Source: Candidatus Moraniibacteriota bacterium
GTDB lineage: Bacteria > Patescibacteriota > Minisyncoccia > CAIUEV01 > JAHKAQ01
NCBI GenBank assembly: GCA_014729795.1
Contig: WJJI01000021.1
Coordinates: forward strand, 1 to 57,471
Direction: 5' to 3'
DNA length: 57,471 bases
Both the position numbers and the translations under genes were made by a program. Below the pieces are notes generated by a model, which ran no database searches, was not told where the DNA came from, and worked only from the letters and a program-made list of their open reading frames with translations. Shown here piece after piece: positions 1,423 through 34,705 of this stretch (position 1 is the first letter of the stretch; each line of letters begins with the position of its first letter).

Positions 1423-2523
1423 ATGACAAAGAAAGCCAGGAAGTTAATTGATTTTTGGAAATTGGGAGTGAACGGGCGACTTAACCAAGCGGCATTACTA
1501 AAACAATTGAGGCGGCATTATCCGCCTTTTTTAAGTGTGAGGATGACTCGCCATTGTATTCTAAACTGTCAACATTGTTTATACCCCAAAGCTAATGTTA
1601 AAGATTTTGATCGCGTGAATTTAAGAAGAATCGGGCTGGTTATCCAAAGCGCGGCCAAGGTCGGTATAAAGCATTTGATTTATACGGGACGGGTATTAAA
1701 GAAGCGACACTTGGATTTATTAAAAAAAGCGCAAGATTTGGGCATGAAGTTGTATTTGATTGATAACGGCAGCGCCGCAAAATTGCTTGAGGATATTAGG
1801 CAAAAAGGATTATTTTTTGACGGCGGAATTGATATTTCCATTGATGGAGACAAGCAGACTCATGAAAAGCAACGAGGACCAAACAGTTTTAATTTGGCTA
1901 TTCAGGGAGCTAAAAAATTAAGAGAGGCGGGCAGCGGGATTTCGGTTACCGCGACCGCTTCCAGTATAAATTATCAGAGCATAACGCGGGGTTTGGTAAA
2001 ATTGCGCGGACAATTGCCTTTTGTAAAAGTTTGGCAATTGGCAACTACGGTTAGTTTCGCGCATCATAAGAAAAGAATGAACTTGAATAAACAGGAAATG
2101 AAGACTCTGTTTGCAAATTTTAAAAAATTTGTTCAAAAATATGATTTAACGTTGGCTATTTATCAAAACAATGATATGGAGCCGATTCTAAAGGATTTAA
2201 ATAAGATCGGTAAGCCGGAATTTAAGTATATATCAATGTTTTGGTCTTTGGGAAAAGGCAAGGTGAAATACTTTCCGGAATCGATTGTGGTTAGTGAAGA
2301 AATACCGATTGACGCTGATGGAACACATTATTTACCATTTAAAGCCGATTATCATTTAGGAGAGCGACCAGCCGAATATGCCAGCGATTCCGATTTGATT
2401 ATCCGGGATCCGGATAAAAGTTATGAAGCGCTTGTGCAGAAACACTGGGAGACGCAAGGTAAATATAAATTTGAGCAGGAAAAACGGATGTTTGGGAAAT
2501 TGAAAAATATTGTTAATTCTTAG
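1423..2523 (+). CDS. Radical SAM domain protein
   Basis: CX3CX2C cluster motif near the N-terminus (RHCILNCQHCLYP). No other Cys-rich (SPASM-like) region is present. 366 aa. Confidence 0.65.
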   Translation: MTKKARKLIDFWKLGVNGRLNQAALLKQLRRHYPPFLSVRMTRHCILNCQHCLYPKANVKDFDRVNLRRIGLVIQSAAKVGIKHLIYTGRVLKKRHLDLLKKAQDLGMKLYLIDNGSAAKLLEDIRQKGLFFDGGIDISIDGDKQTHEKQRGPNSFNLAIQGAKKLREAGSGISVTATASSINYQSITRGLVKLRGQLPFVKVWQLATTVSFAHHKKRMNLNKQEMKTLFANFKKFVQKYDLTLAIYQNNDMEPILKDLNKIGKPEFKYISMFWSLGKGKVKYFPESIVVSEEIPIDADGTHYLPFKADYHLGERPAEYASDSDLIIRDPDKSYEALVQKHWETQGKYKFEQEKRMFGKLKNIVNS

Positions 2524-2702: not shown

Positions 2703-5700
2703 ATGTTTATCACCGGTTTAGCGCGGTTAAAAAAGCGGTGGATTTTATTAATATTGGGAATCCTTGTTTTTGGTTTTTTAAGTTTTGTAATAAACACGTC
2801 CAAGACCAAAGCCTTAGAAGACCAGGAGTCGACCATAAAAATATATTACAAAAACGAATATCAAGAATTTGGCTTAATTCCGCAAACAATACACGATGCG
2901 CCTCGGTTGACCTTTGATTCGGATACAATGAAGGATCAGATCAAGATTAGGGTTTTTAAGGCGGGGGCGCGGGATCTTTTAAAACATTTAACTCATGATA
3001 AAAAACACAAGCAAACTTTGCCCAAGCCCAATAAAGCCGGAATGAGCCAATTAACAGAATTTAGTATTACAGCGGGCAAGAAAGAAACGGTTGATTTACC
3101 GATTGAAAAGATTGGAATATATTATGTGGAGGCAACCGATGGCGAGATGGAGCAAGGAGTTTTTTTATTAAGGAGCGGCTTAGGGGTTGTTTTGAAGCAA
3201 GCAGAAGATCAGCTTGTGTTTTGGTGTCAGGACTTGCAAACCAAACGCTCGTTACAGGGAGCAGAGATTGTGGCCTATAATTTACTTTACGGTCGGTCAG
3301 TCGTTGAGCGCAGCATGAGCGGAAATGATGGCATTGGGAAAATTTTGGCCAGTAAAGATGTTGATATTGTTATTGTTAAGAATGGTAACGATTATGCCTT
3401 AGTGCCAGTGAATTTGCGTTATATTAACATGGAGCACGATTATAACGTAAGTAATTTTAAGGCCGAGGAACCAGAACAGGCAATCTATATTTTTACCGAT
3501 CGACCAATCTATAAACCGGGAGACAAGGTTTATTATAAAGGCTTCATGCGCCAAGACTTAGATGGAGAATTATGGATTAAATCGGGCAAGGTCTTGGTTG
3601 AGGCTTATCTGAGGCATGGTCAAGACAAGGAAGTAGTTTATAAGCAAACCTTGGAGGTTTCGGAGTGGGGCGCTTTTAATCATGAATTTAAACTGCCGAA
3701 AAGCGCTAAGACAGGAAATTATTCTTTGAGAGTGACCATTCCCGACAATGACGACCAACAAAGAAATCCCCTTTATTATTATTTTAGGAATTCGGGTTTG
3801 ATTAATTTTGAGGTTCAATATTATCAAAAACCAGAATACACTTTAGAGGTTGAAGCCTTAAAGGATAAATATCAAGCGGATGAAGAGGTGGAAGTTGACA
3901 TTGAGGGAAAGTATTTTTTCGGTCAACCGGCGGCGAATCAGCAAGTAAATTATGAGATTTTTGCTAGAGAAATTAATACTATATATTATTCTAAAGATAG
4001 ATTAAAAAATTTGAGTCCGGAAGATTATTATAAATATAGGTCATATAAAAATCAATCAATAAAAAGCGGTCAAGTTAACTTAGATCAACTTGGCAAAGCT
4101 CAAATAAAATATAAAGCAGCTGAACTGGTAGATGATAATAGCCTTTTTTTTGTGACCATCCAAGTCTCGACTCAGGATCAAAGCAACAATCCGGTTGTAG
4201 CTCGGACTACCACATTGGTACAAAAAGGGGATTTTGTTATTCTTAACCAAAACGATCAGTATGGTTGGCAAGTTGATCAGGAAAAGGAACTGAATTTTGA
4301 ATTATTTTCAGACAATCAAGAAAAAGTTAAAAATGTTGAAGCGCAAGCTCGGATTGTGCGGAATTGGTGGTCTTATCAGGGTGAAAAGGCGGAAAATCAA
4401 ACTGAAATTATGCAAACACTAACTACAACCTCGGATAGTCAAGGCAAATTTAGCTTTAAGTTTAATCACAAGATACCCGGTAGTTATTATATTTTGATTA
4501 CGGCTAAGGATAGCCAAGATCGGGAAATCAAAACAACGTATTTTTTTTGGGTAAACGGTAATAGCAATAATCAAGATTTTCAAAAAAACAGGGATCTGAA
4601 ATTACAAACCGTCAAGGGGGAGATCGGTTCGAAACAAGACACGCAAATAAAATATGCGCCCGGGCAAACGGCTATTATTAATGTTAGTTCAGGTATGAAG
4701 AATCAGGACTTGCTTTTCACCACTGAAAGAGGTTTTTTAAAGGATTTTCAAATAATCAGTTTAGATGAAAATGGGAGCGCGACTGTGGAAATTCCCGTTC
4801 GAGAAAGTTATATTTCGAATATGTATTTTTGCGGCGCCGGTTTTGATGAACAGGGGTTGGAAAACGATTGTGCTGAGATTGACGTTGAGAACAACACCAA
4901 GGCCGTGTCTTTCCATGTAAAGACCGATAAAAAGGAGTATAGTGTTGGAGAGCAGGTAAACATGGAAATTTTGGCTTTGAATAGTGATGGCGACCCGGTT
5001 CAAGCTGAAGCCGCGGTTTGGAGTGTGGATAAAGCCATTTATGAATTAGCTGAGGATAAACAGAGAAATATTTTGGACTTTTTTTATCGTCACAGGACAA
5101 ATGACACCAATGAAGCGCATTCATTACAGGGGATTTCTATTTACGCGGCGGAAATGGGAGGTTGTTTTCCGGGTTATACCAAGGTTTTAACCGCTAATGG
5201 CGAGGAAAAACAGATCAAAGATATTGAAATCGGAGATCAAGTGTTAACCAGGAAAAATCTGCATGATTCGAATCTGGTTAAAGCCAGGATTAAAAACAAA
5301 ACTCAAGTTAAGGTTGATGGTTATATAAATATTAATGATCGACTCAAGATTACCCCGGAACATTATCTATATTTAAATGCTCGATGGCAGCGGGCGGACA
5401 AAGTTAAGGTTGGGGATAATTTGCTTGATAAAGACGGGAAAGAAGTAAAAGTAAAAAAAATTGAATGGCGAAAAGACAAACAAGTTTTTTATAATCTCGA
5501 AATTGAACATAAACATACATTCTTTGCTCAAAACATATGGGTGCATAATAATAAAGGCGGGATTGGAATGCGATCGGTTTTTGAGGATATGGCTTACTGG
5601 AATCCAACGGTTCGAACAGACAAGAACGGTAAGGCAAAAATATCTTTTAAATTACCCGATAATCTAACCACTTGGGTGTTGCAGGCAACCGGTATGACTA

Positions 5701-7895
5701 AAAACAATGAAGCGGGTCAAAGCTTTAAAGAAATAGTTGTGACCCAAGATGTGATTGTGAGGCCAATTATGCCTAAGGTTTTAAGAAATGAAGACAAAAT
5801 TGTAATTTCCGCTTTGGTGCATAATTTTACTCAAAAAACCCATGAATTCAGAGTAGATTTTGAATTTGATGCCGGAGAAGTCAAGCAAAAGCAAACGCGA
5901 ATAATCTTAGAGCCTAACCAATTAAAACAGGTGTATTTTGAGGTTGAACCTAAGATTGTCAAACAAAACGCAAAGATTAGCATTAAAGCCCAATCGATAA
6001 ATAATGAGAATATTGGAGACGCTATCGAAAAGGAAATCCCGGTAAAGCGTTTTGGTTTCATTGAGAAGATATCGGAATCTAAAAAAGGCAACGCTGAGTA
6101 TAGTTTTTCTTTTCCTGAAGATGCGGTAAACCGGGATAGTAAAGCCACGGTTTCGGTTTTTGCTTCCTATTTGGGAGCCTTGCCGGAGGCTATGGATTAT
6201 TTAGTGAAATATCCTTATGGTTGCGCGGAACAGACTACCAGTCGATTTGTGCCAATTGTGATAGCCAAGGAAAATCCGGAATTGTTCGCTCAAATTCATG
6301 AACAGAAAGAGTTGGACAAAATGATGGACCGAGGTTTGGAAAGATTGGCTAAATTACAGAATAATCGAGGCGCATGGAGTTGGTGGGGAGGAGATTATGA
6401 TGATTTTTTCTTAAGCGCTTATATCGTTGAATATTTGGTGAGAGCAGAAAAAGTCGGGGCGGAAGTTGATCCAATGATAATTGAGCGGGCTAAAAAATAC
6501 TTTGAAAGCTATCATGATAGAAATTTTGCTCAGAAAATTGACGAGTTTGAGTTTGGATTGGATCGGGGGGATAGAATCGCGATTATTTACGCTTTGACCA
6601 AATTAGATTCTGAAAGTGAATTTAGATACACCAGAATTGATAATTTTAATGATTTGCCAATGAATTATTTATTTATGGCAATTTCAGCTAACTTAGCCAA
6701 TGGTTATACAGATAAATCCAGCAATGGAATAGAGTATTTGTTAAATCGGTTAGAGGTTGAGGGAGATAGAGCGTATTTTAAAGAAACGTCGAATTGGAAT
6801 TATGGTTCAAGAGCGGGTTCAAATGCTTTGGGGTTGCGGGCAATGATTGCGGGCGGAGTGGATCAAGGTTTAACGACTAAATTAGTCAGGCAAATTATGC
6901 TTAATAAAGAAAAAGGCTATTGGTATAATAGTTTTGTTACGGCGCAAACCATTCAAGCTTTGGTAGATTATTATCATTCTCAAGGTTTGGATCAGGTTGA
7001 AACGCAATATCGGATCTTGTTAAACGGACAGGTATTTAAAACCGGGTTAATTAAAAAGTACAACCAGACTGATATTTTTGAATTGCCGGTTGATAAAAAT
7101 GATTTGGATGAAAATAAAATAGTAATAGAGAAGATTGACCAGTTTAACAACCAAACCAATAACCAAAAATTATTTTCAAATTTTAGAGCCGAATTATACC
7201 GAACCTTAAGAGAACCAGGACCTAAGGAACAGAATATGAAGATTCAAAGACGGTATATTAATTTTAGTCGACCGGATCAGCCAATAGCGGTTGGGGATAC
7301 AGTAAAAGTGGAATTAAAGGTTGAATCCCAAACGCCGATCAATTTTACGATTATCAAAGACGAATTACCCAGTGGTATGGTTTTTGTCAACCGAGAATTG
7401 GATAACGAGCCGGATAACATGGATCCTCCATCACGTAATTATTCGCAAGCGCGGGAAACTATTAGCGGAGCGGAATTGCCTATTCGTTGGTGGCGTTCAG
7501 ATTCGAATTATTATTATTTTGCTAGAGCGGTAAATGCCGGAGATTTTTTTGCTCCGCCGGCTTTAGTAGAGGCTATGTATGATCCGGATTATTTTGCTCA
7601 ATCCAAGGTCCAGCAAATCAAAATCGATCAGGCTCTCGCTGATCCAGAAAAGCAAGATGAAACCGGTTTTACAACGATTTACGGTCAAGACAGAATAGGC
7701 AATAAAGCCTCAGGCGTCTTAGTGTTAGTAATTTTAGTTATTATTTCGGTTTTACTAAGCACAGGCATGGTTTTAGTTTTAATATTACAAAAACGTTATA
7801 ATATTTTAGGTAAATTAAAAAATAAAATGAAAACTTGGCCAGCAAGGACTAATCGATCAAGACAAAAAGACCAACAGGATGAAAAACAAGATTAG
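2703..7895 (+). CDS. Alpha-2-macroglobulin family thioester protein, membrane-anchored, with an inserted Hint domain
   Basis: 1730 aa. N-terminal hydrophobic anchor (WILLILGILVFGFLSFV). Bait-region-domain-like WSVDKAIYELAEDKQRNILDFFYRHR. MG7-type FEDMAYWNPTVRTDKNGKAKISFKLPDNLTTW. Thioester motif YPYGCAEQTTSRF (GCAEQ at 6219-6233). C-terminal TM helix GVLVLVILVIISVLLSTGMVLVLIL. Confidence 0.9.
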   Translation: MFITGLARLKKRWILLILGILVFGFLSFVINTSKTKALEDQESTIKIYYKNEYQEFGLIPQTIHDAPRLTFDSDTMKDQIKIRVFKAGARDLLKHLTHDKKHKQTLPKPNKAGMSQLTEFSITAGKKETVDLPIEKIGIYYVEATDGEMEQGVFLLRSGLGVVLKQAEDQLVFWCQDLQTKRSLQGAEIVAYNLLYGRSVVERSMSGNDGIGKILASKDVDIVIVKNGNDYALVPVNLRYINMEHDYNVSNFKAEEPEQAIYIFTDRPIYKPGDKVYYKGFMRQDLDGELWIKSGKVLVEAYLRHGQDKEVVYKQTLEVSEWGAFNHEFKLPKSAKTGNYSLRVTIPDNDDQQRNPLYYYFRNSGLINFEVQYYQKPEYTLEVEALKDKYQADEEVEVDIEGKYFFGQPAANQQVNYEIFAREINTIYYSKDRLKNLSPEDYYKYRSYKNQSIKSGQVNLDQLGKAQIKYKAAELVDDNSLFFVTIQVSTQDQSNNPVVARTTTLVQKGDFVILNQNDQYGWQVDQEKELNFELFSDNQEKVKNVEAQARIVRNWWSYQGEKAENQTEIMQTLTTTSDSQGKFSFKFNHKIPGSYYILITAKDSQDREIKTTYFFWVNGNSNNQDFQKNRDLKLQTVKGEIGSKQDTQIKYAPGQTAIINVSSGMKNQDLLFTTERGFLKDFQIISLDENGSATVEIPVRESYISNMYFCGAGFDEQGLENDCAEIDVENNTKAVSFHVKTDKKEYSVGEQVNMEILALNSDGDPVQAEAAVWSVDKAIYELAEDKQRNILDFFYRHRTNDTNEAHSLQGISIYAAEMGGCFPGYTKVLTANGEEKQIKDIEIGDQVLTRKNLHDSNLVKARIKNKTQVKVDGYININDRLKITPEHYLYLNARWQRADKVKVGDNLLDKDGKEVKVKKIEWRKDKQVFYNLEIEHKHTFFAQNIWVHNNKGGIGMRSVFEDMAYWNPTVRTDKNGKAKISFKLPDNLTTWVLQATGMTKNNEAGQSFKEIVVTQDVIVRPIMPKVLRNEDKIVISALVHNFTQKTHEFRVDFEFDAGEVKQKQTRIILEPNQLKQVYFEVEPKIVKQNAKISIKAQSINNENIGDAIEKEIPVKRFGFIEKISESKKGNAEYSFSFPEDAVNRDSKATVSVFASYLGALPEAMDYLVKYPYGCAEQTTSRFVPIVIAKENPELFAQIHEQKELDKMMDRGLERLAKLQNNRGAWSWWGGDYDDFFLSAYIVEYLVRAEKVGAEVDPMIIERAKKYFESYHDRNFAQKIDEFEFGLDRGDRIAIIYALTKLDSESEFRYTRIDNFNDLPMNYLFMAISANLANGYTDKSSNGIEYLLNRLEVEGDRAYFKETSNWNYGSRAGSNALGLRAMIAGGVDQGLTTKLVRQIMLNKEKGYWYNSFVTAQTIQALVDYYHSQGLDQVETQYRILLNGQVFKTGLIKKYNQTDIFELPVDKNDLDENKIVIEKIDQFNNQTNNQKLFSNFRAELYRTLREPGPKEQNMKIQRRYINFSRPDQPIAVGDTVKVELKVESQTPINFTIIKDELPSGMVFVNRELDNEPDNMDPPSRNYSQARETISGAELPIRWWRSDSNYYYFARAVNAGDFFAPPALVEAMYDPDYFAQSKVQQIKIDQALADPEKQDETGFTTIYGQDRIGNKASGVLVLVILVIISVLLSTGMVLVLILQKRYNILGKLKNKMKTWPARTNRSRQKDQQDEKQD
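5163..5549 (+). other. Hint / mini-intein-like (BIL-like) domain inserted in the A2M bait region
   Basis: Starts with Cys (CFPGYTKVLTANGE, block A) and has a TxxH block B (KITPEHYLYL). Ends with block F/G NLEIEHKHTFFAQNIWVHN. 129 aa with no endonuclease domain. The residue after HN is Asn, not Cys/Ser/Thr. Confidence 0.8.
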
Positions 7896-8853
7896 CCATT
7901 TAAGCGTTGCCTTGCTGATAATTTTGGTTTTAGTCGGGGGTTATTGGTTAAATAAGGCAAAAGAACAAACAGTTAAAATTGAAGTCAAGGCAGAACCAAA
8001 AAAGCAATTAAAAACCAAAAACTCGTTTTTTGTAGATGAGGCAACAATCAAGAATAACAAAGCAACAGATTATCAAATTTACCCGACAAGAAGTTTTGAT
8101 CCGCGGTTGGCTCCTCAGGCTTTGAAAAAACAATATCACAAATTAGACTTGAACGGCTCAATAAGAGGCGCGATTGTGCCGCATCATTTGTTAGCCAGTT
8201 CATTAATCGCGGAGGTTTTTAGCCAGCTGGAATCAGAAAACATTAATAAAGTTATCGTGATTGGGCCAAACCATTTTGAAAAGGGAGAAGCTCGGGTTAT
8301 TTTAAGCGATTGGGGCTGGCGATTGCAGGGAGGTAGCTTGGTAAAGCCGGCTGTTTTTGAAACAAGAGCAATAGCGCAAAGATGTAGTTTTTGTTCCATT
8401 GAGCCTTTGGTGGTGGAGAATGAACACGCCATCGCTGATTTGACTATTTTTATTAATCATTTTTTGCCTAAAGCTAAGCTCATGCCCATTATTGTCAAAC
8501 AAGGCAGTTCTTTAGATCAAGCGCGAGAGCTGGGGCGGTTGCTAGGCAAAATTGCCGATCAAAACACAGTAATTATTGCTTCGGTTGATTTTTCTCATTA
8601 TTTGGATAAACAGCAAACCAAGGGTAAAGACAAGCAATCATGGAAGGCGATAAGGAATGGGGATTTGGTCAAAATTAAAACCTTTAATAATGATAATCTT
8701 GACTCTCCCGGTTCAATAATTGCATTATTGGAAGCTATGAATTATTTAAATGCGAATCAGGTGGAAAAAATTAGAAATACTTGCTCGCAGGAAATAATGC
8801 ATGATGCCATGGCAGAAAACACCAGTTATATAACGGCAGTTTTTGTTGATTAA
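7879..8853 (+). CDS. Memo-like protein (AmmeMemoRadiSam system protein B family-like) with N-terminal TM anchor
   Basis: Motif order matches the MEMO1 family: GAIVPHHLLA, VIGPNHF, ENEHAIADL, MPIIV, ASVDFSHYL. N-terminal helix LSVALLIILVLVGGYWL. The ATG overlaps the A2M 3' end by 17 nt. Confidence 0.65.
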   Translation: MKNKISHLSVALLIILVLVGGYWLNKAKEQTVKIEVKAEPKKQLKTKNSFFVDEATIKNNKATDYQIYPTRSFDPRLAPQALKKQYHKLDLNGSIRGAIVPHHLLASSLIAEVFSQLESENINKVIVIGPNHFEKGEARVILSDWGWRLQGGSLVKPAVFETRAIAQRCSFCSIEPLVVENEHAIADLTIFINHFLPKAKLMPIIVKQGSSLDQARELGRLLGKIADQNTVIIASVDFSHYLDKQQTKGKDKQSWKAIRNGDLVKIKTFNNDNLDSPGSIIALLEAMNYLNANQVEKIRNTCSQEIMHDAMAENTSYITAVFVD

Positions 8854-12951: not shown

Positions 12952-14799
12952 CTAATCATCAATTTCGATTTCTTCGTTGTTGCTGTAAGTTTCGCATTTT
13001 TTGTCAGTATTATTCCAGACGCAAACTCGGAAATAATAAGTTTCGTCTTCTTCAAGATCTTCCCAGGTATAGCCGGTGTCATCTTCATCGGTAATGGAGA
13101 TCGGATTGTCATCAGGATAAGTGGGATTTTTACTTTTGCTTCTGACAATCTTATAACCATCCGGAGCTTGACCGCCCGATATAGACCAAGATAGTTTTGC
13201 CTCGCCCTTGTCCGGACTGGATCCGCTTAAGCTCACTGAATTGGCGTAATCTACTTCTTCCTCTTCCTCTTTTTCCTCCTCTTCTTCTTCTTCCTCCTCT
13301 TCCTCCTCCTCTTCTTCATTTAAATCAACGCATTTATTGTTTTGTAGTTTTTGGTCGTCTTCGCATTCGCAAATTTCTTCATCTTTTTTCCAGTCGCCTC
13401 CAGAATCTTCGCAGTCTTCCCGACGCGTGGAGGTGTCTTTTTCCACTGTTTCAATTTCCACATTATTTGAGTAAACCCGACATTCGGTTGAGGCTTCGGC
13501 CACGCAAAGACGAAAATAATAGGTTTTACCGTCAGTGATTTTCCAGGTAAATTGTCGTTTTTCCGGGGAGGAAATTGATTGGTATCGACTTCCGGGGTAA
13601 ATCGGATTAGGATTGCCGCCTCTTACCAACTTAAAACCGTTAGGCGCTTTTATATCGTTTAACTCCCATTCAAATTTAATACCGTCTTCACCGGCGGTGC
13701 CCTTAAGCACAACATCGCCACTGCCCGAATTTTGACTTGAGTTTTGGTTGGTTTCATTGTTTTCAGAAGAACGTTGATCATTTTGAATCTCGGATAGCTT
13801 TACTGAGACATAGGAACTCAATGCCATGTTTTTCTTTTCATCTTGTTCAATGTTCCATAATAAGAAATCGTCTTCCAGATCAGCTGTTTGAATGTCGGAC
13901 TTACTTTTGGTTTGGTTTTCAATAGTGATTTTTTGACCCTCCTCAATAATGATTGGATCTTCTTTGCCTTTGGTTACTTTTATGCCATTTTCCAGAACTC
14001 CGGCAGTAACCTCCATGCCGATTTTTTCACTCCAAAAAGCAGTGCCTATGGATTGAATTTTGATTTTATCAATGCCCCGGGTGCCGGTTAGCAGAACCTT
14101 ATATTGACGTTTATTTTTTTTGCTGGTTTTAGCCACTCGGTGATAGATTTTGCCATAATTTTGAATGATAAGAATGTCATTGCTTTCGCTGGTCAAGACA
14201 ATGCGGGAACGTTGTTTGAGTCGAATCAAACCGCCGTTATCTAAACTAATAATGGCTCGGGAGTCGGCATTGGTTTTGATTTCGTAATTGTTTTTGAGTT
14301 TGGTTTCGGCATCGGCCTCTTCCCATTCTTGATTTTTATCTTTTTTAATCATGACTTCACCTTGGGTGTAAATTATTTTGGCGGAAACATTTCTACCAAT
14401 TAAAAACCTACTGATCATAAAAATTATACCGATAGAAGTAACACCAAAAAGTAACCAGTATAAATAATAGGTTAAATTTTCTCTACCCAACCTTGATTTA
14501 CTTTTTCTTTTAATAAACATATTGTTTTTTTGGTTTTTTCTGGCCTTTAAATAATTAATAGTTTTGGAATCCAAGGTGGGAAGGGTCTTTTTTCTTTTAA
14601 TTTTTTCCGGCATGTGATCTTTATTAATTGTCTTGATGTTAGGGGATAAATCAGAATAAAGTATTAATGAGTTTAACATATTTTTCAAGAAAAAGAAAGG
14701 GTCGATGAGCGGTTCTCGAGAAATTTTGGGGTTTTGGTGATTATATGTTATATTTGTAAGAGCATTTAAAAGGAAAAAAGAAAAAGAACCACAAAACAA
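12952..14799 (-). CDS. Membrane-anchored protein with a FecR-like domain, two C-terminal beta-sandwich repeats and a poly-Glu linker
   Basis: TM helix YLYWLLFGVTSIGIIFMI. FecR-like segment NADSRAIISLDNGGLIRLKQRSRIVL. Two roughly 90-aa repeats share APxGaKhVR...NPxYP...TYYFRxCV...C.xYSNNxEIE. A 21-codon run (E15 K E5) lies at 13255-13317. The true start is probably downstream of 14799. Confidence 0.55.
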   Translation of the reverse strand: MFCGSFSFFLLNALTNITYNHQNPKISREPLIDPFFFLKNMLNSLILYSDLSPNIKTINKDHMPEKIKRKKTLPTLDSKTINYLKARKNQKNNMFIKRKSKSRLGRENLTYYLYWLLFGVTSIGIIFMISRFLIGRNVSAKIIYTQGEVMIKKDKNQEWEEADAETKLKNNYEIKTNADSRAIISLDNGGLIRLKQRSRIVLTSESNDILIIQNYGKIYHRVAKTSKKNKRQYKVLLTGTRGIDKIKIQSIGTAFWSEKIGMEVTAGVLENGIKVTKGKEDPIIIEEGQKITIENQTKSKSDIQTADLEDDFLLWNIEQDEKKNMALSSYVSVKLSEIQNDQRSSENNETNQNSSQNSGSGDVVLKGTAGEDGIKFEWELNDIKAPNGFKLVRGGNPNPIYPGSRYQSISSPEKRQFTWKITDGKTYYFRLCVAEASTECRVYSNNVEIETVEKDTSTRREDCEDSGGDWKKDEEICECEDDQKLQNNKCVDLNEEEEEEEEEEEEEEEKEEEEEVDYANSVSLSGSSPDKGEAKLSWSISGGQAPDGYKIVRSKSKNPTYPDDNPISITDEDDTGYTWEDLEEDETYYFRVCVWNNTDKKCETYSNNEEIEIDD

Positions 14800-18629: not shown

Positions 18630-21476
18630 ATGAAAACCAGGAGGAAAAGGCAATATATTAGCTGGGGGGTGATAAAGGTTTTTTTAGCGTTGGGTTTAGG
18701 TACTTTCGGTATTGGTTGCCAGCAGGCGCGAGCCGATATCGCGGCCGGTTATCAGGAATTTTTGATTCCGGGGCAAGAAGAAATATTATGGCAGGTTTTT
18801 ACAGGAATGGATAATGATCCGGTTTTGGTTGAAAGCCAGGGATTGCGTTCGGTGATTTCCGTAACCACCTCGTTGGATAATACGAAAATTTATTACGATC
18901 ATTGGGAAAATGGTTATACTTTTGACCCAACCGATCCGGAAAACACTAACGATGAAATCGCCTTTTTAAATCAAGGCGATTTTGTTGAATTTGAAAGCAA
19001 AAACGTACCGGTTAACCCAAGAGGAAACGATTTGTATTATGATGGCGGGGATAAAATATATATTGCAGGCGGTCCAATTTCTGTAAGTCGAGCCACTTGG
19101 CCGGAATCATTAGGAACGGTTTATGCTTTTTCTTGGGAGCTATATCCAACCCGGGCTTTGTTAACGGATTATAGCATCCCTTTTGGGGCAGATTTAGCGC
19201 AAGCGCCTTACAATTATGATGATTTTAATCGAACTTTTTTGTTGGTGCAGGCAATTGAAGATAATACGGCGGTTGAAATTGATGATCCAAACACAGCCGG
19301 AGTGGATATACAACAACAATTAAATCAAGGAGAGACAGTGTTGCTAACGGATAATAACGCCAACACCTCGGTTAGCGCCGACAAGTCGGTGCAAACTCAA
19401 ATATTGGTGGGGCAAACCCAGAGCAATATTAGTTCAGAAATCAGGGGGTTTACTGTTGTGCCAGACGGTCTGTGGAGCCGAGAATATTACGCGCCTTTAG
19501 GCGGATTTAGCAGCGCGGATTCTGATTTTTATATTTACAATCCAAATGATTATGACATCGATATTCAATATCAGGATTTAGATAAGCAAGGGACTTTTAC
19601 CATGGCGGCTAAAGAAACAGTCGCTTATTCGGATGCTACCGGCGTGGCGGTACCTACTAATACCTCGGTTTATTTTAGCAGCGATCATGTTTTTTGGGGG
19701 GTGGGTTCCGTGGACACTGAGGACTTTAATTATGATTGGGGTTTTAGTCTAATTCCCGATCACTTGTTGGCCAATGAGTATTTTTTAGGTTGGGCGCCAG
19801 GTTCTTCTGAAGATATTCCGAGCGTTAATGGCTCGCCTGTGTTTGTTACCGCCACAGAAGACGATACCGTTGTTTACGTTGACTACAGTCCAACCGATGG
19901 AGTTTATGATGAAAGTCATGTGATTAATAAATTAGAAACAAGGCGTTTTTTTGATCCGGATAATGAAAATTCCGGTATGCGTATTTGGTCTAACAATCCA
20001 GTTGTAGTGCTTTGGGGACAAGATCCAGACGCCAGCGATACGGGGACTCCGTATTTAGACTTGGGTTATCCGATGTTGCCTTTGCTGGATGATTGGTTGG
20101 ATTTGGTACTTAAACTGGATAAAAGCGTAAAACCAGAATCTTTATCACAAAAAGATGGGGCTCGAGCCGAGTTTTCGCTTAAAATCATGAGCTATAACTA
20201 TCCGGTTTTTAACATTAGAGCCAATGATGATTTACCAGAGGGTTGGCATTATATTGCCAACACCACTAAAGTTGAGTTCAGCGATGGTACGGTAATTGAT
20301 GATGCCAGTATTCGGCCAACAGTGACCGGATCGCATCTGGAATGGGATTTGGACATGGATTTGGGCATTGATGAGTACTTAACAATTACCTTTGAAGTCG
20401 AGCAAGACGAGACTACGCCAGACGGGTTTTCTCAAAACAATGCTCAAGCAGTGGGAAACCGATTAGCCGGAGCTCAGATATTTTCTCCAATCGCTACCGA
20501 GCATATTTTCTTGGCGCCGCTTGAAATTGACAAAAATATTCCGGATCCAGAAGTAGATCCGGGCGAATCGGTTTGGGTTGAGCTAGAAATAATAAACTAT
20601 GGAGATGATGACTATACCGGAGTGGAGATTTTCGATGAATTACCAGAAAATTTAACATTAGGCGAGATAATTATTATTGAAAACGGCGCGATAAAAACAT
20701 CGGATCAGGGCCCCAACAGTGGAGACACGGGCGATATAACTTGGGGGACATGGGACTTACCCAGCGGAACCGGCATTATTATTAAATATGAAGTTATGGT
20801 TCCCGAAGACGCGCAAGATGGAGAATATGAAACGGGCAGCGTTCAGGTTTATACAGACCAAACCGGTTTTATCGCGGATTTAATAGAAGCCGGAGATTCC
20901 CTGAAATTAATTATAAGAAAATTAATTCCTGGCGAGCCGACATCAGAACCTGATTCTGGGCGGCAAAATAATAATCCTGACGATGAGGGTGATGAAGATG
21001 ATCAGGATGACGAGGATGGAGAAGACGATGGAGACGAGGATGAGAATGATAAGGAGCAACCGGTTTATTACAACCAACAGGATAATCGTTATGTTGTGGT
21101 TGAGGATGAAAATGATCCGATTTATCAAATAATAAATCAAGGTCAAGATAATGATGAATCGCAAGAAGGGCAAACCATAAACCCGGATTTGGCTATACAA
21201 GAACAAGTTAGTCTTGAAGAAATAACCGAAAGGCAAAAGCATTTAGATGAACTTAATTCTGATAAAGATTGGTGGTTGAATTTGTTAAAAGCATTATTAG
21301 CGATTTTGGGCGGCAGCGGAGGCATGATGGTTTTTTTGGGTGTTAATTCCAATCCAATGGGCTTGGCTTTAGGCGAGCATAACATAAGTTTTAGTAAAAA
21401 AATTAATTTGGTTAAAAAACTAAGAGGTAGTTTTTATAAACCAAAGAATATTTCCATTAAAAATTGGCAGAAATAA
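18630..21476 (+). CDS. Large cell-surface protein with DUF11/CARDB-like repeat, acidic low-complexity region and C-terminal TM anchor
   Basis: Signal-like N-terminus VIKVFLALGLGTFGIGCQQARA. DUF11-like LEIDKNIPDPEVDPGESVWVELEIINYGDDDYTGVEIFDELPENL. D/E-rich DDEGDEDDQDDEDGEDDGDEDEND. Helix LLKALLAILGGSGGMMVFLGV. Confidence 0.6.
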   Translation: MKTRRKRQYISWGVIKVFLALGLGTFGIGCQQARADIAAGYQEFLIPGQEEILWQVFTGMDNDPVLVESQGLRSVISVTTSLDNTKIYYDHWENGYTFDPTDPENTNDEIAFLNQGDFVEFESKNVPVNPRGNDLYYDGGDKIYIAGGPISVSRATWPESLGTVYAFSWELYPTRALLTDYSIPFGADLAQAPYNYDDFNRTFLLVQAIEDNTAVEIDDPNTAGVDIQQQLNQGETVLLTDNNANTSVSADKSVQTQILVGQTQSNISSEIRGFTVVPDGLWSREYYAPLGGFSSADSDFYIYNPNDYDIDIQYQDLDKQGTFTMAAKETVAYSDATGVAVPTNTSVYFSSDHVFWGVGSVDTEDFNYDWGFSLIPDHLLANEYFLGWAPGSSEDIPSVNGSPVFVTATEDDTVVYVDYSPTDGVYDESHVINKLETRRFFDPDNENSGMRIWSNNPVVVLWGQDPDASDTGTPYLDLGYPMLPLLDDWLDLVLKLDKSVKPESLSQKDGARAEFSLKIMSYNYPVFNIRANDDLPEGWHYIANTTKVEFSDGTVIDDASIRPTVTGSHLEWDLDMDLGIDEYLTITFEVEQDETTPDGFSQNNAQAVGNRLAGAQIFSPIATEHIFLAPLEIDKNIPDPEVDPGESVWVELEIINYGDDDYTGVEIFDELPENLTLGEIIIIENGAIKTSDQGPNSGDTGDITWGTWDLPSGTGIIIKYEVMVPEDAQDGEYETGSVQVYTDQTGFIADLIEAGDSLKLIIRKLIPGEPTSEPDSGRQNNNPDDEGDEDDQDDEDGEDDGDEDENDKEQPVYYNQQDNRYVVVEDENDPIYQIINQGQDNDESQEGQTINPDLAIQEQVSLEEITERQKHLDELNSDKDWWLNLLKALLAILGGSGGMMVFLGVNSNPMGLALGEHNISFSKKINLVKKLRGSFYKPKNISIKNWQK

Positions 21477-31541: not shown

Positions 31542-31575
31542 AATCTTGGGAATTCTTCCCAAATAAAAATAATGC

Positions 31576-34692
<3,117 letters not shown>

Positions 34693-34705
34693 CGCATTTA
34701 TAACA

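Follow-up and report, generated by a model that had tools for sequence, protein, structure and literature searches.

Activation of alpha-2-macroglobulins (A2Ms) and of complement is, to our knowledge, thought to need another protease, which cuts the bait or activation segment. In A2Ms, a break in bait continuity is essential for the trigger, and the segment that follows the bait is a plug of the central channel that retracts after cleavage (PMC9352918). In the bacterial A2M ECAM, the cut bait untethers a disordered segment and the thioester is freed (PMC4498604). Type A bacterial intein-like (BIL) domains end in His-Asn and have no nucleophile at the +1 position; they form an N-terminal thioester, cut at the C-terminal junction by Asn cyclization and can re-join their flanks by aminolysis, although cleavage products dominate (PMC4031507; PMC7664689). 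A relative, BIL2, resolves its thioester by a lysine side chain (PMC8616854). Here we describe an A2M that carries such a Hint domain in its bait loop. It is encoded in a stretch of 57,471 nucleotides from a Candidatus Moraniibacteriota bacterium (contig WJJI01000021.1 of assembly GCA_014729795.1, positions 1 to 57,471, hereafter the window). The 129-aa Hint is fixed at this site in a large clade of A2Ms, from genomes that all belong to Patescibacteria where their label is credible, and we lean toward the reading that it would excise itself from the bait loop, mainly leaving a chain break that would act as a built-in, protease-free trigger of the A2M.

The Hint fold was identified far above chance. 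On the whole A2M, Pfam placed PT-HINT at aa 828-949; when the 130-aa segment was searched alone, PT-HINT (PF07591) scored 53.7 bits against a cutoff of 27.7 (E 3.4e-14), and the Intein_splicing, Hom_end_hint, Vint and Hint (Hedgehog) models were over cutoff as well, giving five Hint-type models in total. The top sequence match among solved structures was the Clostridium thermocellum BIL 2lwy (E 1.2e-5), followed by Tetrahymena BIL2 and then mini-inteins. An AlphaFold model of the Hint, built with 18 homologues, had a predicted local distance difference test score (pLDDT) above 90 in its core, and a Foldseek search with this model returned BIL2 (6y75/6tmm) first, with an E value of 9e-12 and a template modeling score of about 0.77, and 2lwy second (2e-9). 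The gp41-1 and DnaB mini-inteins ranked lower, and Hedgehog 1at0 came after them (E 1.6e-6). The segment thus shows the motifs of blocks A, B, F and G on a Hint fold, as members of the HINT superfamily do.

At its C terminus the domain reads HTFFAQNIWVHN and closes at His948-Asn949. Residues for an N-S acyl shift (Cys1 and the TxxH block) and for Asn cyclization (His-Asn) are all present. Judged by this residue set, the domain is a catalytically complete mini-Hint of the A-type BIL or pretoxin-HINT kind. Class 1 inteins carry a conserved Asp at block F position F:4, where it has a defining role. The window Hint has Asn in place of this Asp, and its +1 residue is Asn950, a position at which Ser occurs in only 2 of 81 relatives. 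Because of the block F Asn, the missing +1 nucleophile, the length of 129 aa and the BIL matches, the domain was grouped with A-type BIL and PT-HINT domains, which have Cys1, a C-terminal His-Asn, a non-nucleophilic +1 residue and no homing endonuclease, and not with canonical inteins. An earlier note, made from the sequence alone, had proposed a Hint-like module of 129 aa at 5163-5552, resembling A-type BILs more than canonical class 1 inteins. Its range corresponds to the domain (5163-5549) plus the +1 residue, and the N-terminal Cys after AAEMGG, the ITPEH block, the C-terminal His-Asn and the Asn at +1 were each found where it had put them. The note had also seen no endonuclease domain, for which 129 aa indeed leaves no room. 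The profile searches and structure prediction that it had proposed as checks returned the five Pfam models and the BIL2 fold match given above, and the class assignment held, the +1 residue being non-nucleophilic in about 79 of the 81 relatives.

The Hint occupies the bait loop of the host protein. By Pfam boundaries it stands between the bait-region domain (A2M_BRD, aa 650-782) and the next macroglobulin (MG) domain (A2M/MG7, aa 964-1052), and its N-terminal junction reads AAEMGG/CFPGY (the slash marks the junction). Five Hint-less relatives (P0014, P0016, P0017, P0022 and P0051) can be aligned before and after the Hint; at its site they have only a short loop, of variable sequence and length and in some of them rich in Gly. 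The loop of P0014, the nearest of the five, is PIYARSSTGGGGGGGD-SNGNR. Once the Hint is taken out, the window loop closely resembles it (22 aa from SL to R versus 24 aa in P0014; PIYARSSTGGGGGGGDSNGNR). Furthermore, aa 954-1054 align (E 2.6e-4) with the C3c/C3b alpha' chain at residues 13-117, and with the intact C3 alpha chain from residue 90 on. The window A2M and C3 have in common the motifs R-S-x-F-x-(E/D)-x-(W/A)-x-W-N and (P/K)D(N/S)(L/I)TTW. Since the residues after the Hint align to the C3 alpha' chain, the Hint fills the slot of the C3 anaphylatoxin domain, with its C-terminal scissile bond about 8 residues downstream of the position that corresponds to the C3 convertase site. A 427-aa model (aa 636-1062) matched the BIL structures plus C3, A2M, C5 and ECAM. 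In this model the Hint had a pLDDT of 80-93 and the linkers (aa 800-818 and 952-961) were below 50; the predicted template modeling score of 0.48 does not fix how the Hint is oriented with respect to the MG domains. GC content was level across the Hint segment, and no direct repeats flanking it were seen at the locus. The four lines of evidence, Pfam boundaries, Hint-less loops, C3 alignment and the 427-aa model, agree with the placement between the bait-region domain and the next MG domain that the earlier note had read from the sequence.

Coordinates of the A2M, its Hint and the adjoining genes in the window
Feature	Position	Strand	Basis
A2M gene (Hint host), 1730 aa	2703..7895	+	ORF (open reading frame); Pfam MG2, bMG5, A2M_BRD, A2M, TED_complement, bMG10, all over cutoff
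Hydrophobic N-terminal segment, aa ~14-32, signal peptide or signal anchor	2742..2798	+	Kyte-Doolittle 19-residue window = 2.5
A2M_BRD, bait-region domain, PF07703, aa 650-782	4650..5048	+	E 7e-12, 46.3 bits vs cutoff 22.7
N-side linker, aa 783-820, ending in conserved A-E-x-G-G; Gly819-Gly820 = -2/-1	5049..5162	+	pLDDT <50 at aa 800-818
Hint domain, 129 aa (aa 821-949), BIL-A / PT-HINT type, no endonuclease	5163..5549	+	Pfam, PDB sequence match, AlphaFold + Foldseek
Cys821, block A Cys1, tgt codon; predicted nucleophile for N-S acyl shift at Gly820-Cys821	5163..5165	+	Invariant C-F, 18-sequence alignment
Block B T-P-E-H (ITPEH), Thr884 + His887	5352..5363	+	His invariant (18 sequences); TxxH in 77/81
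Block F Tyr930-Asn931-Leu932 (FYNL)	5490..5498	+	Asn, Leu invariant (18 sequences); Asn in 80/81
Block G His948-Asn949; Asn949 (5547-5549) = predicted cyclizing residue, C-terminal cleavage	5544..5549	+	H-N invariant, 18 sequences
C-side linker, aa 950-956, NKGGIGM; +1 Asn950 (5550-5552), +2 Lys951 (5553-5555)	5550..5570	+	pLDDT <50 at aa 952-961
R-S-x-F-x-D-x-A-Y-W-N-P motif + next MG domain (PF00207 A2M, aa 964-1052; MG7)	5571..5858	+	C3 alpha' alignment
Thioester motif YPYGCAEQ, aa 1170-1177, TED domain; Cys1174 = 6222-6224	6210..6233	+	Motif intact
C-terminal transmembrane anchor, aa ~1676-1694, then basic tail	7728..7784	+	Kyte-Doolittle window = 3.0
Memo-like protein, 324 aa, membrane-anchored	7879..8853	+	PF01875 E 5e-22; TIGR04336 95.8 bits vs cutoff 26
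Radical SAM protein, just upstream of the A2M	1423-2523	+	Weak generic SPASM/heme-type maturase matches

The host is a thioester A2M. It has the MG domains, the bait-region domain, a thioester domain (TED) with the CxEQ motif (CAEQ, aa 1174-1177) and the C-terminal MG domain, and a sequence search of the PDB matched it to ECAM/YfhM and Salmonella A2M (E 1e-20), with C3 and C4 matched too. The thioester motif, reported as intact in the earlier note, is complete, and CxEQ is retained in 60 of 64 homologues of the clade to which the window protein belongs (clade I below). Arg957, Phe960 and Asp962 of the motif after the bait were unchanged in 23 A2Ms, whether these bear a Hint or not. From hydrophobic segments at both ends, the A2M-Hint protein is predicted to be exported. 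Of 63 clade I homologues, 58 have a comparable N-terminal segment and 60 the C-terminal anchor; with both ends anchored in this way, both chains of a cut protein would remain on the cell. The Hint-less sister P0014 is without the C-terminal anchor, which would suit a need to hold both chains after a cut, on a single comparison (n=1).

The Hint, its junctions and its flanks are conserved to a degree that the host is not. Conservation was read from an 18-sequence alignment, the unbiased set, and from 81 A2M-Hint proteins collected by a motif that itself required CF, HN and Lys +2; the invariance of these three therefore rests on alignments other than the 81-protein count. In the 18 sequences, Gly-2, Gly-1, Cys1, Phe2, the block B His, the block F Asn-Leu, His-Asn and Lys +2 were all invariant. 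Among the 81 proteins, Gly occupies -1 in every one and -2 in 80, Cys1 is the sole Cys of the Hint in all 81, the +3 residue is Gly in 71, and the spacer to the conserved Arg measures 5-8 aa. The +1 residue is Gln in 37, Asp in 28, Glu in 7, Gly in 5, Asn in 2 and Ser in 2. The Hint is 127-131 aa long, and exactly 129 aa in 65 of the 81.

Identity to the window protein was 38-48% in the Hint versus 17-33% in the remainder, and hosts sharing 17-35% identity still kept the catalytic residues and the junctions. Between relatives, amino-acid identity reaches at most about 55%. In the main clade, mean pairwise identity was 46.9% for the Hint versus 35.4% for the host, and between clades it was 38-42% versus 18-24%. 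Across 64 clade I proteins, mean column identity was 33% overall, 46% in the Hint, 53% in the N-terminal flank (aa 806-820) and 51% in the C-terminal flank, and the most conserved 30-aa windows of the entire A2M fell at aa 921-990. A hypervariable, disordered, protease-sensitive bait, as expected of an A2M, was thus not found; its slot is filled by a folded Hint that is conserved together with its flanks, which is the reverse of the usual hypervariable bait. The fixed architecture and the higher conservation of the Hint than of the host speak for a domesticated functional module and against a passenger.

The same architecture recurs across Patescibacteria. A homologue search returned twelve full-length A2Ms of 30-35% identity and five more distant ones, all with PF07591. 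A word-indexed homologue search with the Hint alone returned no match, and an exhaustive profile search with the Hint region over 1.84 billion cluster representatives was then used. It yielded 858 proteins at E<=1e-30, tandem-Hint proteins included; about half of the best 150 of these 858 are 1.6-1.8 thousand aa long with a single full-length match at about aa 780-1000. The motif-defined A2M-Hint proteins in hand number 81, all with the Hint at the same site, and with the five Hint-less relatives and their short loops they provide the comparison of orthologues with and without the insert that the earlier note had called for. In species-representative genomes, scanned with a 9-sequence Hint+MG7 alignment, 69 loci encode an A2M ORF with a GCF...HN-x-K Hint. 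The lineages named in their titles include Moraniibacteriota, Parcubacteria/Paceibacterota, Magasanikbacteria, WWE3, Woesebacteria, Daviesbacteria, Amesbacteria, Shapirobacteria, Saccharibacteria and Peregrinibacteria. Thirty metagenome-assembled genomes among L001-L073 (e.g., L001, L002, L006, L008 and L009) are titled Gammaproteobacteria, Pseudomonadales, Bdellovibrionales, Micavibrio, Methanoperedens and similar; the GC range of their loci is that of the Patescibacteria-labelled loci, and these labels are doubtful. The distribution is Patescibacteria-wide, and all credibly labelled genomes belong to Patescibacteria.

Two further kinds of protein were met in these searches. The closest relatives of the Hint outside A2Ms are proteins of 2-14 tandem Hints (P0121-P0130, P0137, P0138 and others), joined by tiny linkers of the form VHN/KG(GG)/CF, in which a Lys likewise follows His-Asn; some of them carry a Tim44-like domain. 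P0098 and P0099 (loci L084 and L086) are stand-alone proteins of about 1000 aa that correspond only to an A2M's N-terminal half, with its MG and bait-region domains. Natural two-gene A2Ms split at the bait would have supported a functional two-chain form, but no C-terminal A2M half was encoded nearby at L084 and L086, so these proteins are uninformative on this point.

In a neighbor-joining tree of the A2Ms without their Hints, the Hint-bearing proteins fell into three lineages. Clade I is large and monophyletic, contains the window protein and has the Hint-less P0014 as its sister; clade II (P0015 and P0025) is nested within Hint-less A2Ms of about 2000 aa; clade III (P0084, P0089, P0101 and P0265), from which CxEQ has been lost, occupies a long branch. 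The A2M Hints themselves form a single clade, separate from the other Hints sampled. Within clade I, Hint and host divergence showed a weak positive correlation (Spearman 0.20), which is compatible with vertical descent. The Hint may be ancient with several losses, or it may have moved between A2M bait loops; the distance tree cannot choose between the two.

Taken with published A2M and BIL biochemistry, these data suggest how the protein might work. The A2M would be exported by Sec, and the Hint would fold outside the cell. By an N-S acyl shift, Cys821 would turn the Gly820-Cys821 peptide bond into a thioester, and Asn949 would cyclize with the help of His948, cutting the Asn949-Asn950 bond. 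Because there is no Cys, Ser or Thr at +1 and block F has Asn for Asp, no branched intermediate should form, and cleavage products are expected to dominate. The Hint (15.3 kDa) would then be released with a C-terminal succinimide (-17 Da), and the A2M would consist of two chains of about 90.0 and 89.7 kDa, each anchored in the membrane, with a new N terminus 7 residues ahead of the R-S-x-F-x-D-x-A-Y-W plug motif. The break in the bait chain would bring about the conformational change and expose the thioester, and so would replace or prime the usual cut of the bait by a protease. Its timing could be set by redox state, by metal ions, by pH or by the Memo-like protein described below.

Self-excision that leaves mainly a chain break is the outcome that we consider somewhat probable, and several points weigh against it. 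Both the C. thermocellum BIL and Tetrahymena BIL2 (the latter through a Lys isopeptide) can re-join their flanks by aminolysis, and the invariant Lys +2 could be used in the same way. Constitutive self-triggering would be wasteful for the thioester unless it were regulated. The conserved Lys and Arg of the C-terminal flank could serve as an ordinary trypsin-type bait. Finally, the Hint is kept, fully conserved, where CxEQ has been lost, in clade I by P0200, P0206, P0247 and P0250 and in clade III by all members, so the role of the Hint cannot be solely to fire the thioester.

The alternative that survives best, possible but clearly less likely, is maturation by splicing, in which the Hint leaves, the flanks are re-joined (...AEMGG-NKGGIGMR...) and the product, of 183.9 kDa for the full chain, is a normal protease-triggered trap with a short Gly-rich bait. 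The alpha-amine of the +1 residue might attack the thioester, as in type A BILs, or the epsilon-amine of Lys +2 might do so, giving an isopeptide as in BIL2. The closest solved relatives, 2lwy and 6y75 (Lys isopeptide), behave in this way; Lys +2 is invariant and Gly-Gly at -2/-1 nearly so, and the loop left after removal of the Hint (22 aa) is much like that of P0014 (24 aa). However, BIL cleavage products dominate according to reviews, and Gln, Asp and Glu predominate at +1 in place of the small residues that would favor attack by the alpha-amine. Moreover, a neutral passenger without an endonuclease should vanish fast from a loop that tolerates insertions and deletions, whereas this Hint is fixed and more conserved than its host, and its flanks are conserved too. 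Of the two options raised in the earlier note, splicing out to mature the bait and self-cleavage, published BIL biochemistry favors the latter.

A bolder proposal, which we regard as rather unlikely, is that the A2M-Hint family would be a self-firing covalent surface device, an "auto-convertase", instead of a protease trap, or that the Gly820 thioester would be captured by Lys +2 to give an isopeptide-closed bait. In the auto-convertase form, excision of the Hint would be regulated, perhaps by metal or redox state through the extracellular Memo-like protein; the thioester would be exposed, and the cell would be tethered covalently to a nearby surface, for example a host cell. Patescibacteria are known for episymbiosis.

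Transfer of the Hedgehog type appears improbable. Here an outside nucleophile, for instance a lipid, an amine of the cell wall or a protein of the host surface, would take the Gly820 thioester, so that the 820-aa N-terminal part becomes attached to it covalently. The GG/CFPG junction has the form of the Hedgehog G/CF site, the Hedgehog Hint model of Pfam was over cutoff, Foldseek found 1at0 at E 1.6e-6, and BIL2 joins its N-terminal flank to lysines in different proteins. However, the sequence after the Hint lacks a sterol-recognition region or any other that would recruit an adduct, the invariant His-Asn end argues for a cut at the C-terminal junction that Hedgehog does not make, and no acceptor candidate was found.

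It is hardly probable, too, that the Hint is inert, a folded spacer, binding module or bulky plug in the bait loop without self-processing. Non-catalytic roles exist for some Hint-like domains, and the processing of A2M-Hint proteins is a prediction; yet the residues that the chemistry needs, Cys1, the His of block B and the final His-Asn, are unchanged or almost unchanged even between hosts that have diverged widely, while surface positions vary. Least of all, a selfish mobile intein or an assembly chimera is very improbable: the three Hint-bearing lineages of the distance tree might point to transfer between A2M genes, but the A2M Hints form one clade with a positive Hint-host correlation in clade I, the segment lacks an endonuclease, a +1 nucleophile, a GC shift and flanking repeats, and the same in-frame architecture at 69 independent loci and in about 80 protein clusters effectively refutes a chimera.

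The gene directly downstream of the A2M encodes a Memo-like protein of the AmmeMemoRadiSam system protein B family with a transmembrane helix at its N terminus. Its start lies 17 nt ahead of the point where the A2M ORF ends, so that it overlaps the A2M stop codon. A Memo-like homologue follows directly on the same strand in 38 of the 69 loci, many of the others being cut by contig ends, and the gene also adjoins the divergent clade III P0084. The Memo-like protein is a candidate partner of clades I and III, and it may regulate or act on the A2M-Hint. A strict tie between the Memo-like gene and the Hint was considered and rejected, since the Hint-bearing A2Ms of clade II pair with a penicillin-binding protein (PBP): both these and Hint-less Patescibacteria A2Ms (loci L083, L087, L088 and L089 for the two kinds together) adjoin a class A PBP with transglycosylase and transpeptidase domains. 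A class A PBP is the classical partner of bacterial A2Ms, as in the A2M-PBP1C pairing of proteobacteria. The clade of the window protein has lost the A2M-PBP pairing. An AmmeMemoRadiSam system around the A2M was likewise unsupported: the matches of the upstream radical S-adenosylmethionine (SAM) gene were weak and generic, and it was not a conserved neighbor in related loci.

Elsewhere in the window, the 23S rRNA gene (31571-34700, +) is 3130 nt long against a 2925-nt model matched end to end, with about 200 nt extra as insertions. Two large predicted surface proteins are encoded, one with IgGFc_binding and DUF11 domains (18630-21476, +) and the other with FecR and fn3/Ig-like domains (12952-14799, -).

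Full-text literature searches found no paper describing a Hint in the bait loop of an A2M, in agreement with the earlier note, whose author knew of none. Database pipelines already tag A2M-Hint proteins with PF07591; the architecture can thus be seen in databases, yet is apparently undiscussed. Both modules are known; the novelty lies in how they are combined, where the combination sits, how conserved it is and what it implies for the mechanism. If the Hint fires, it would provide a protease-independent route to the A2M conformational switch and a natural, domesticated use of intein-like chemistry as the trigger of an extracellular protein; an auto-convertase or an isopeptide-closed bait, if true, would put Hint chemistry to a new use and activate proteins of the A2M/complement type in a new way. 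The trigger mechanism of A2Ms, discontinuity of the bait chain, becomes testable in one self-contained protein. The compact 129-aa domain with Cys1, His-Asn and the defined flanks GG/C ... HN/xKG is a possible tool for protein engineering, and the A2M-Hint with its Memo-like neighbor represents an unexplored surface system in Patescibacteria. The A2M Hint is also a clear case of a Hint retained by selection and not by selfish spread.

Among known systems, the window Hint is most like the A-type BIL and PT-HINT domains typified by 2lwy, with which it shares a length of about 130 aa, the absence of an endonuclease, Cys1, TxxH, Y-N-(L/F), His-Asn and the lack of a +1 nucleophile. Block F of the C. 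thermocellum BIL is Y-N-F, with the same Asn as the Y-N-L of the window. A-type BILs sit in the variable region of secreted or surface proteins, and the window Hint likewise lies in the bait loop of a predicted exported A2M, yet here the host family and the site are conserved. The family further differs from A-type BILs in its A2M host and in being fixed phylum-wide, whereas BILs are scattered in non-conserved proteins, and its flanks are invariant, with GG at -2/-1 and Lys at +2. BIL2, from the polyubiquitin-like BUBL1 locus of Tetrahymena thermophila (6y75, 6tmm), is the top structural match; it forms an isopeptide through a Lys epsilon-amine, and the window family has an invariant Lys near the C-terminal junction. 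Unlike the window Hint, BIL2 is eukaryotic and cytosolic and has ubiquitin-like flanks; sequence identity is 22-23%, and the isopeptide is known for BIL2.

The Hedgehog Hog domain has the same fold, a G/C-F site at the N-terminal junction (GG/CFPG in the window) and an N-S acyl shift as its first step, as predicted for the window Hint. Hog carries a region for sterol recognition and makes no cut at a C-terminal Asn, whereas the window Hint lacks such a region and ends in His-Asn, with the MG domain of the A2M resuming seven residues later. Class 1 mini-inteins (gp41-1, DnaB and RecA) have the fold and blocks A, B, F and G in common with the window Hint; they differ in their Cys, Ser or Thr at +1, their block F Asp, their conserved sites in housekeeping enzymes and their sporadic, selfish distribution. 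The Hint of the window family is instead fixed throughout one monophyletic clade, and its site is a loop that varies in other A2Ms.

On the host side, complement C3, C4 and C5 hold the anaphylatoxin domain in the topological slot of the Hint, before the alpha'-chain plug motif R-S-x-F-P-E-S-W. The convertase cut makes a new N terminus there, and removal of the Hint would do likewise; the two folds are unrelated, and complement is cut by an external protease, whereas the Hint is predicted to cut itself. ECAM/YfhM and Salmonella A2M share with the window A2M the MG, BRD, TED and MG10 domains, CxEQ and membrane anchoring, and cleavage of the bait is their trigger. Their bait is disordered and variable and they pair with PBP1C; the window family has instead a conserved Hint in its bait, anchors at both ends and a Memo-like candidate partner.

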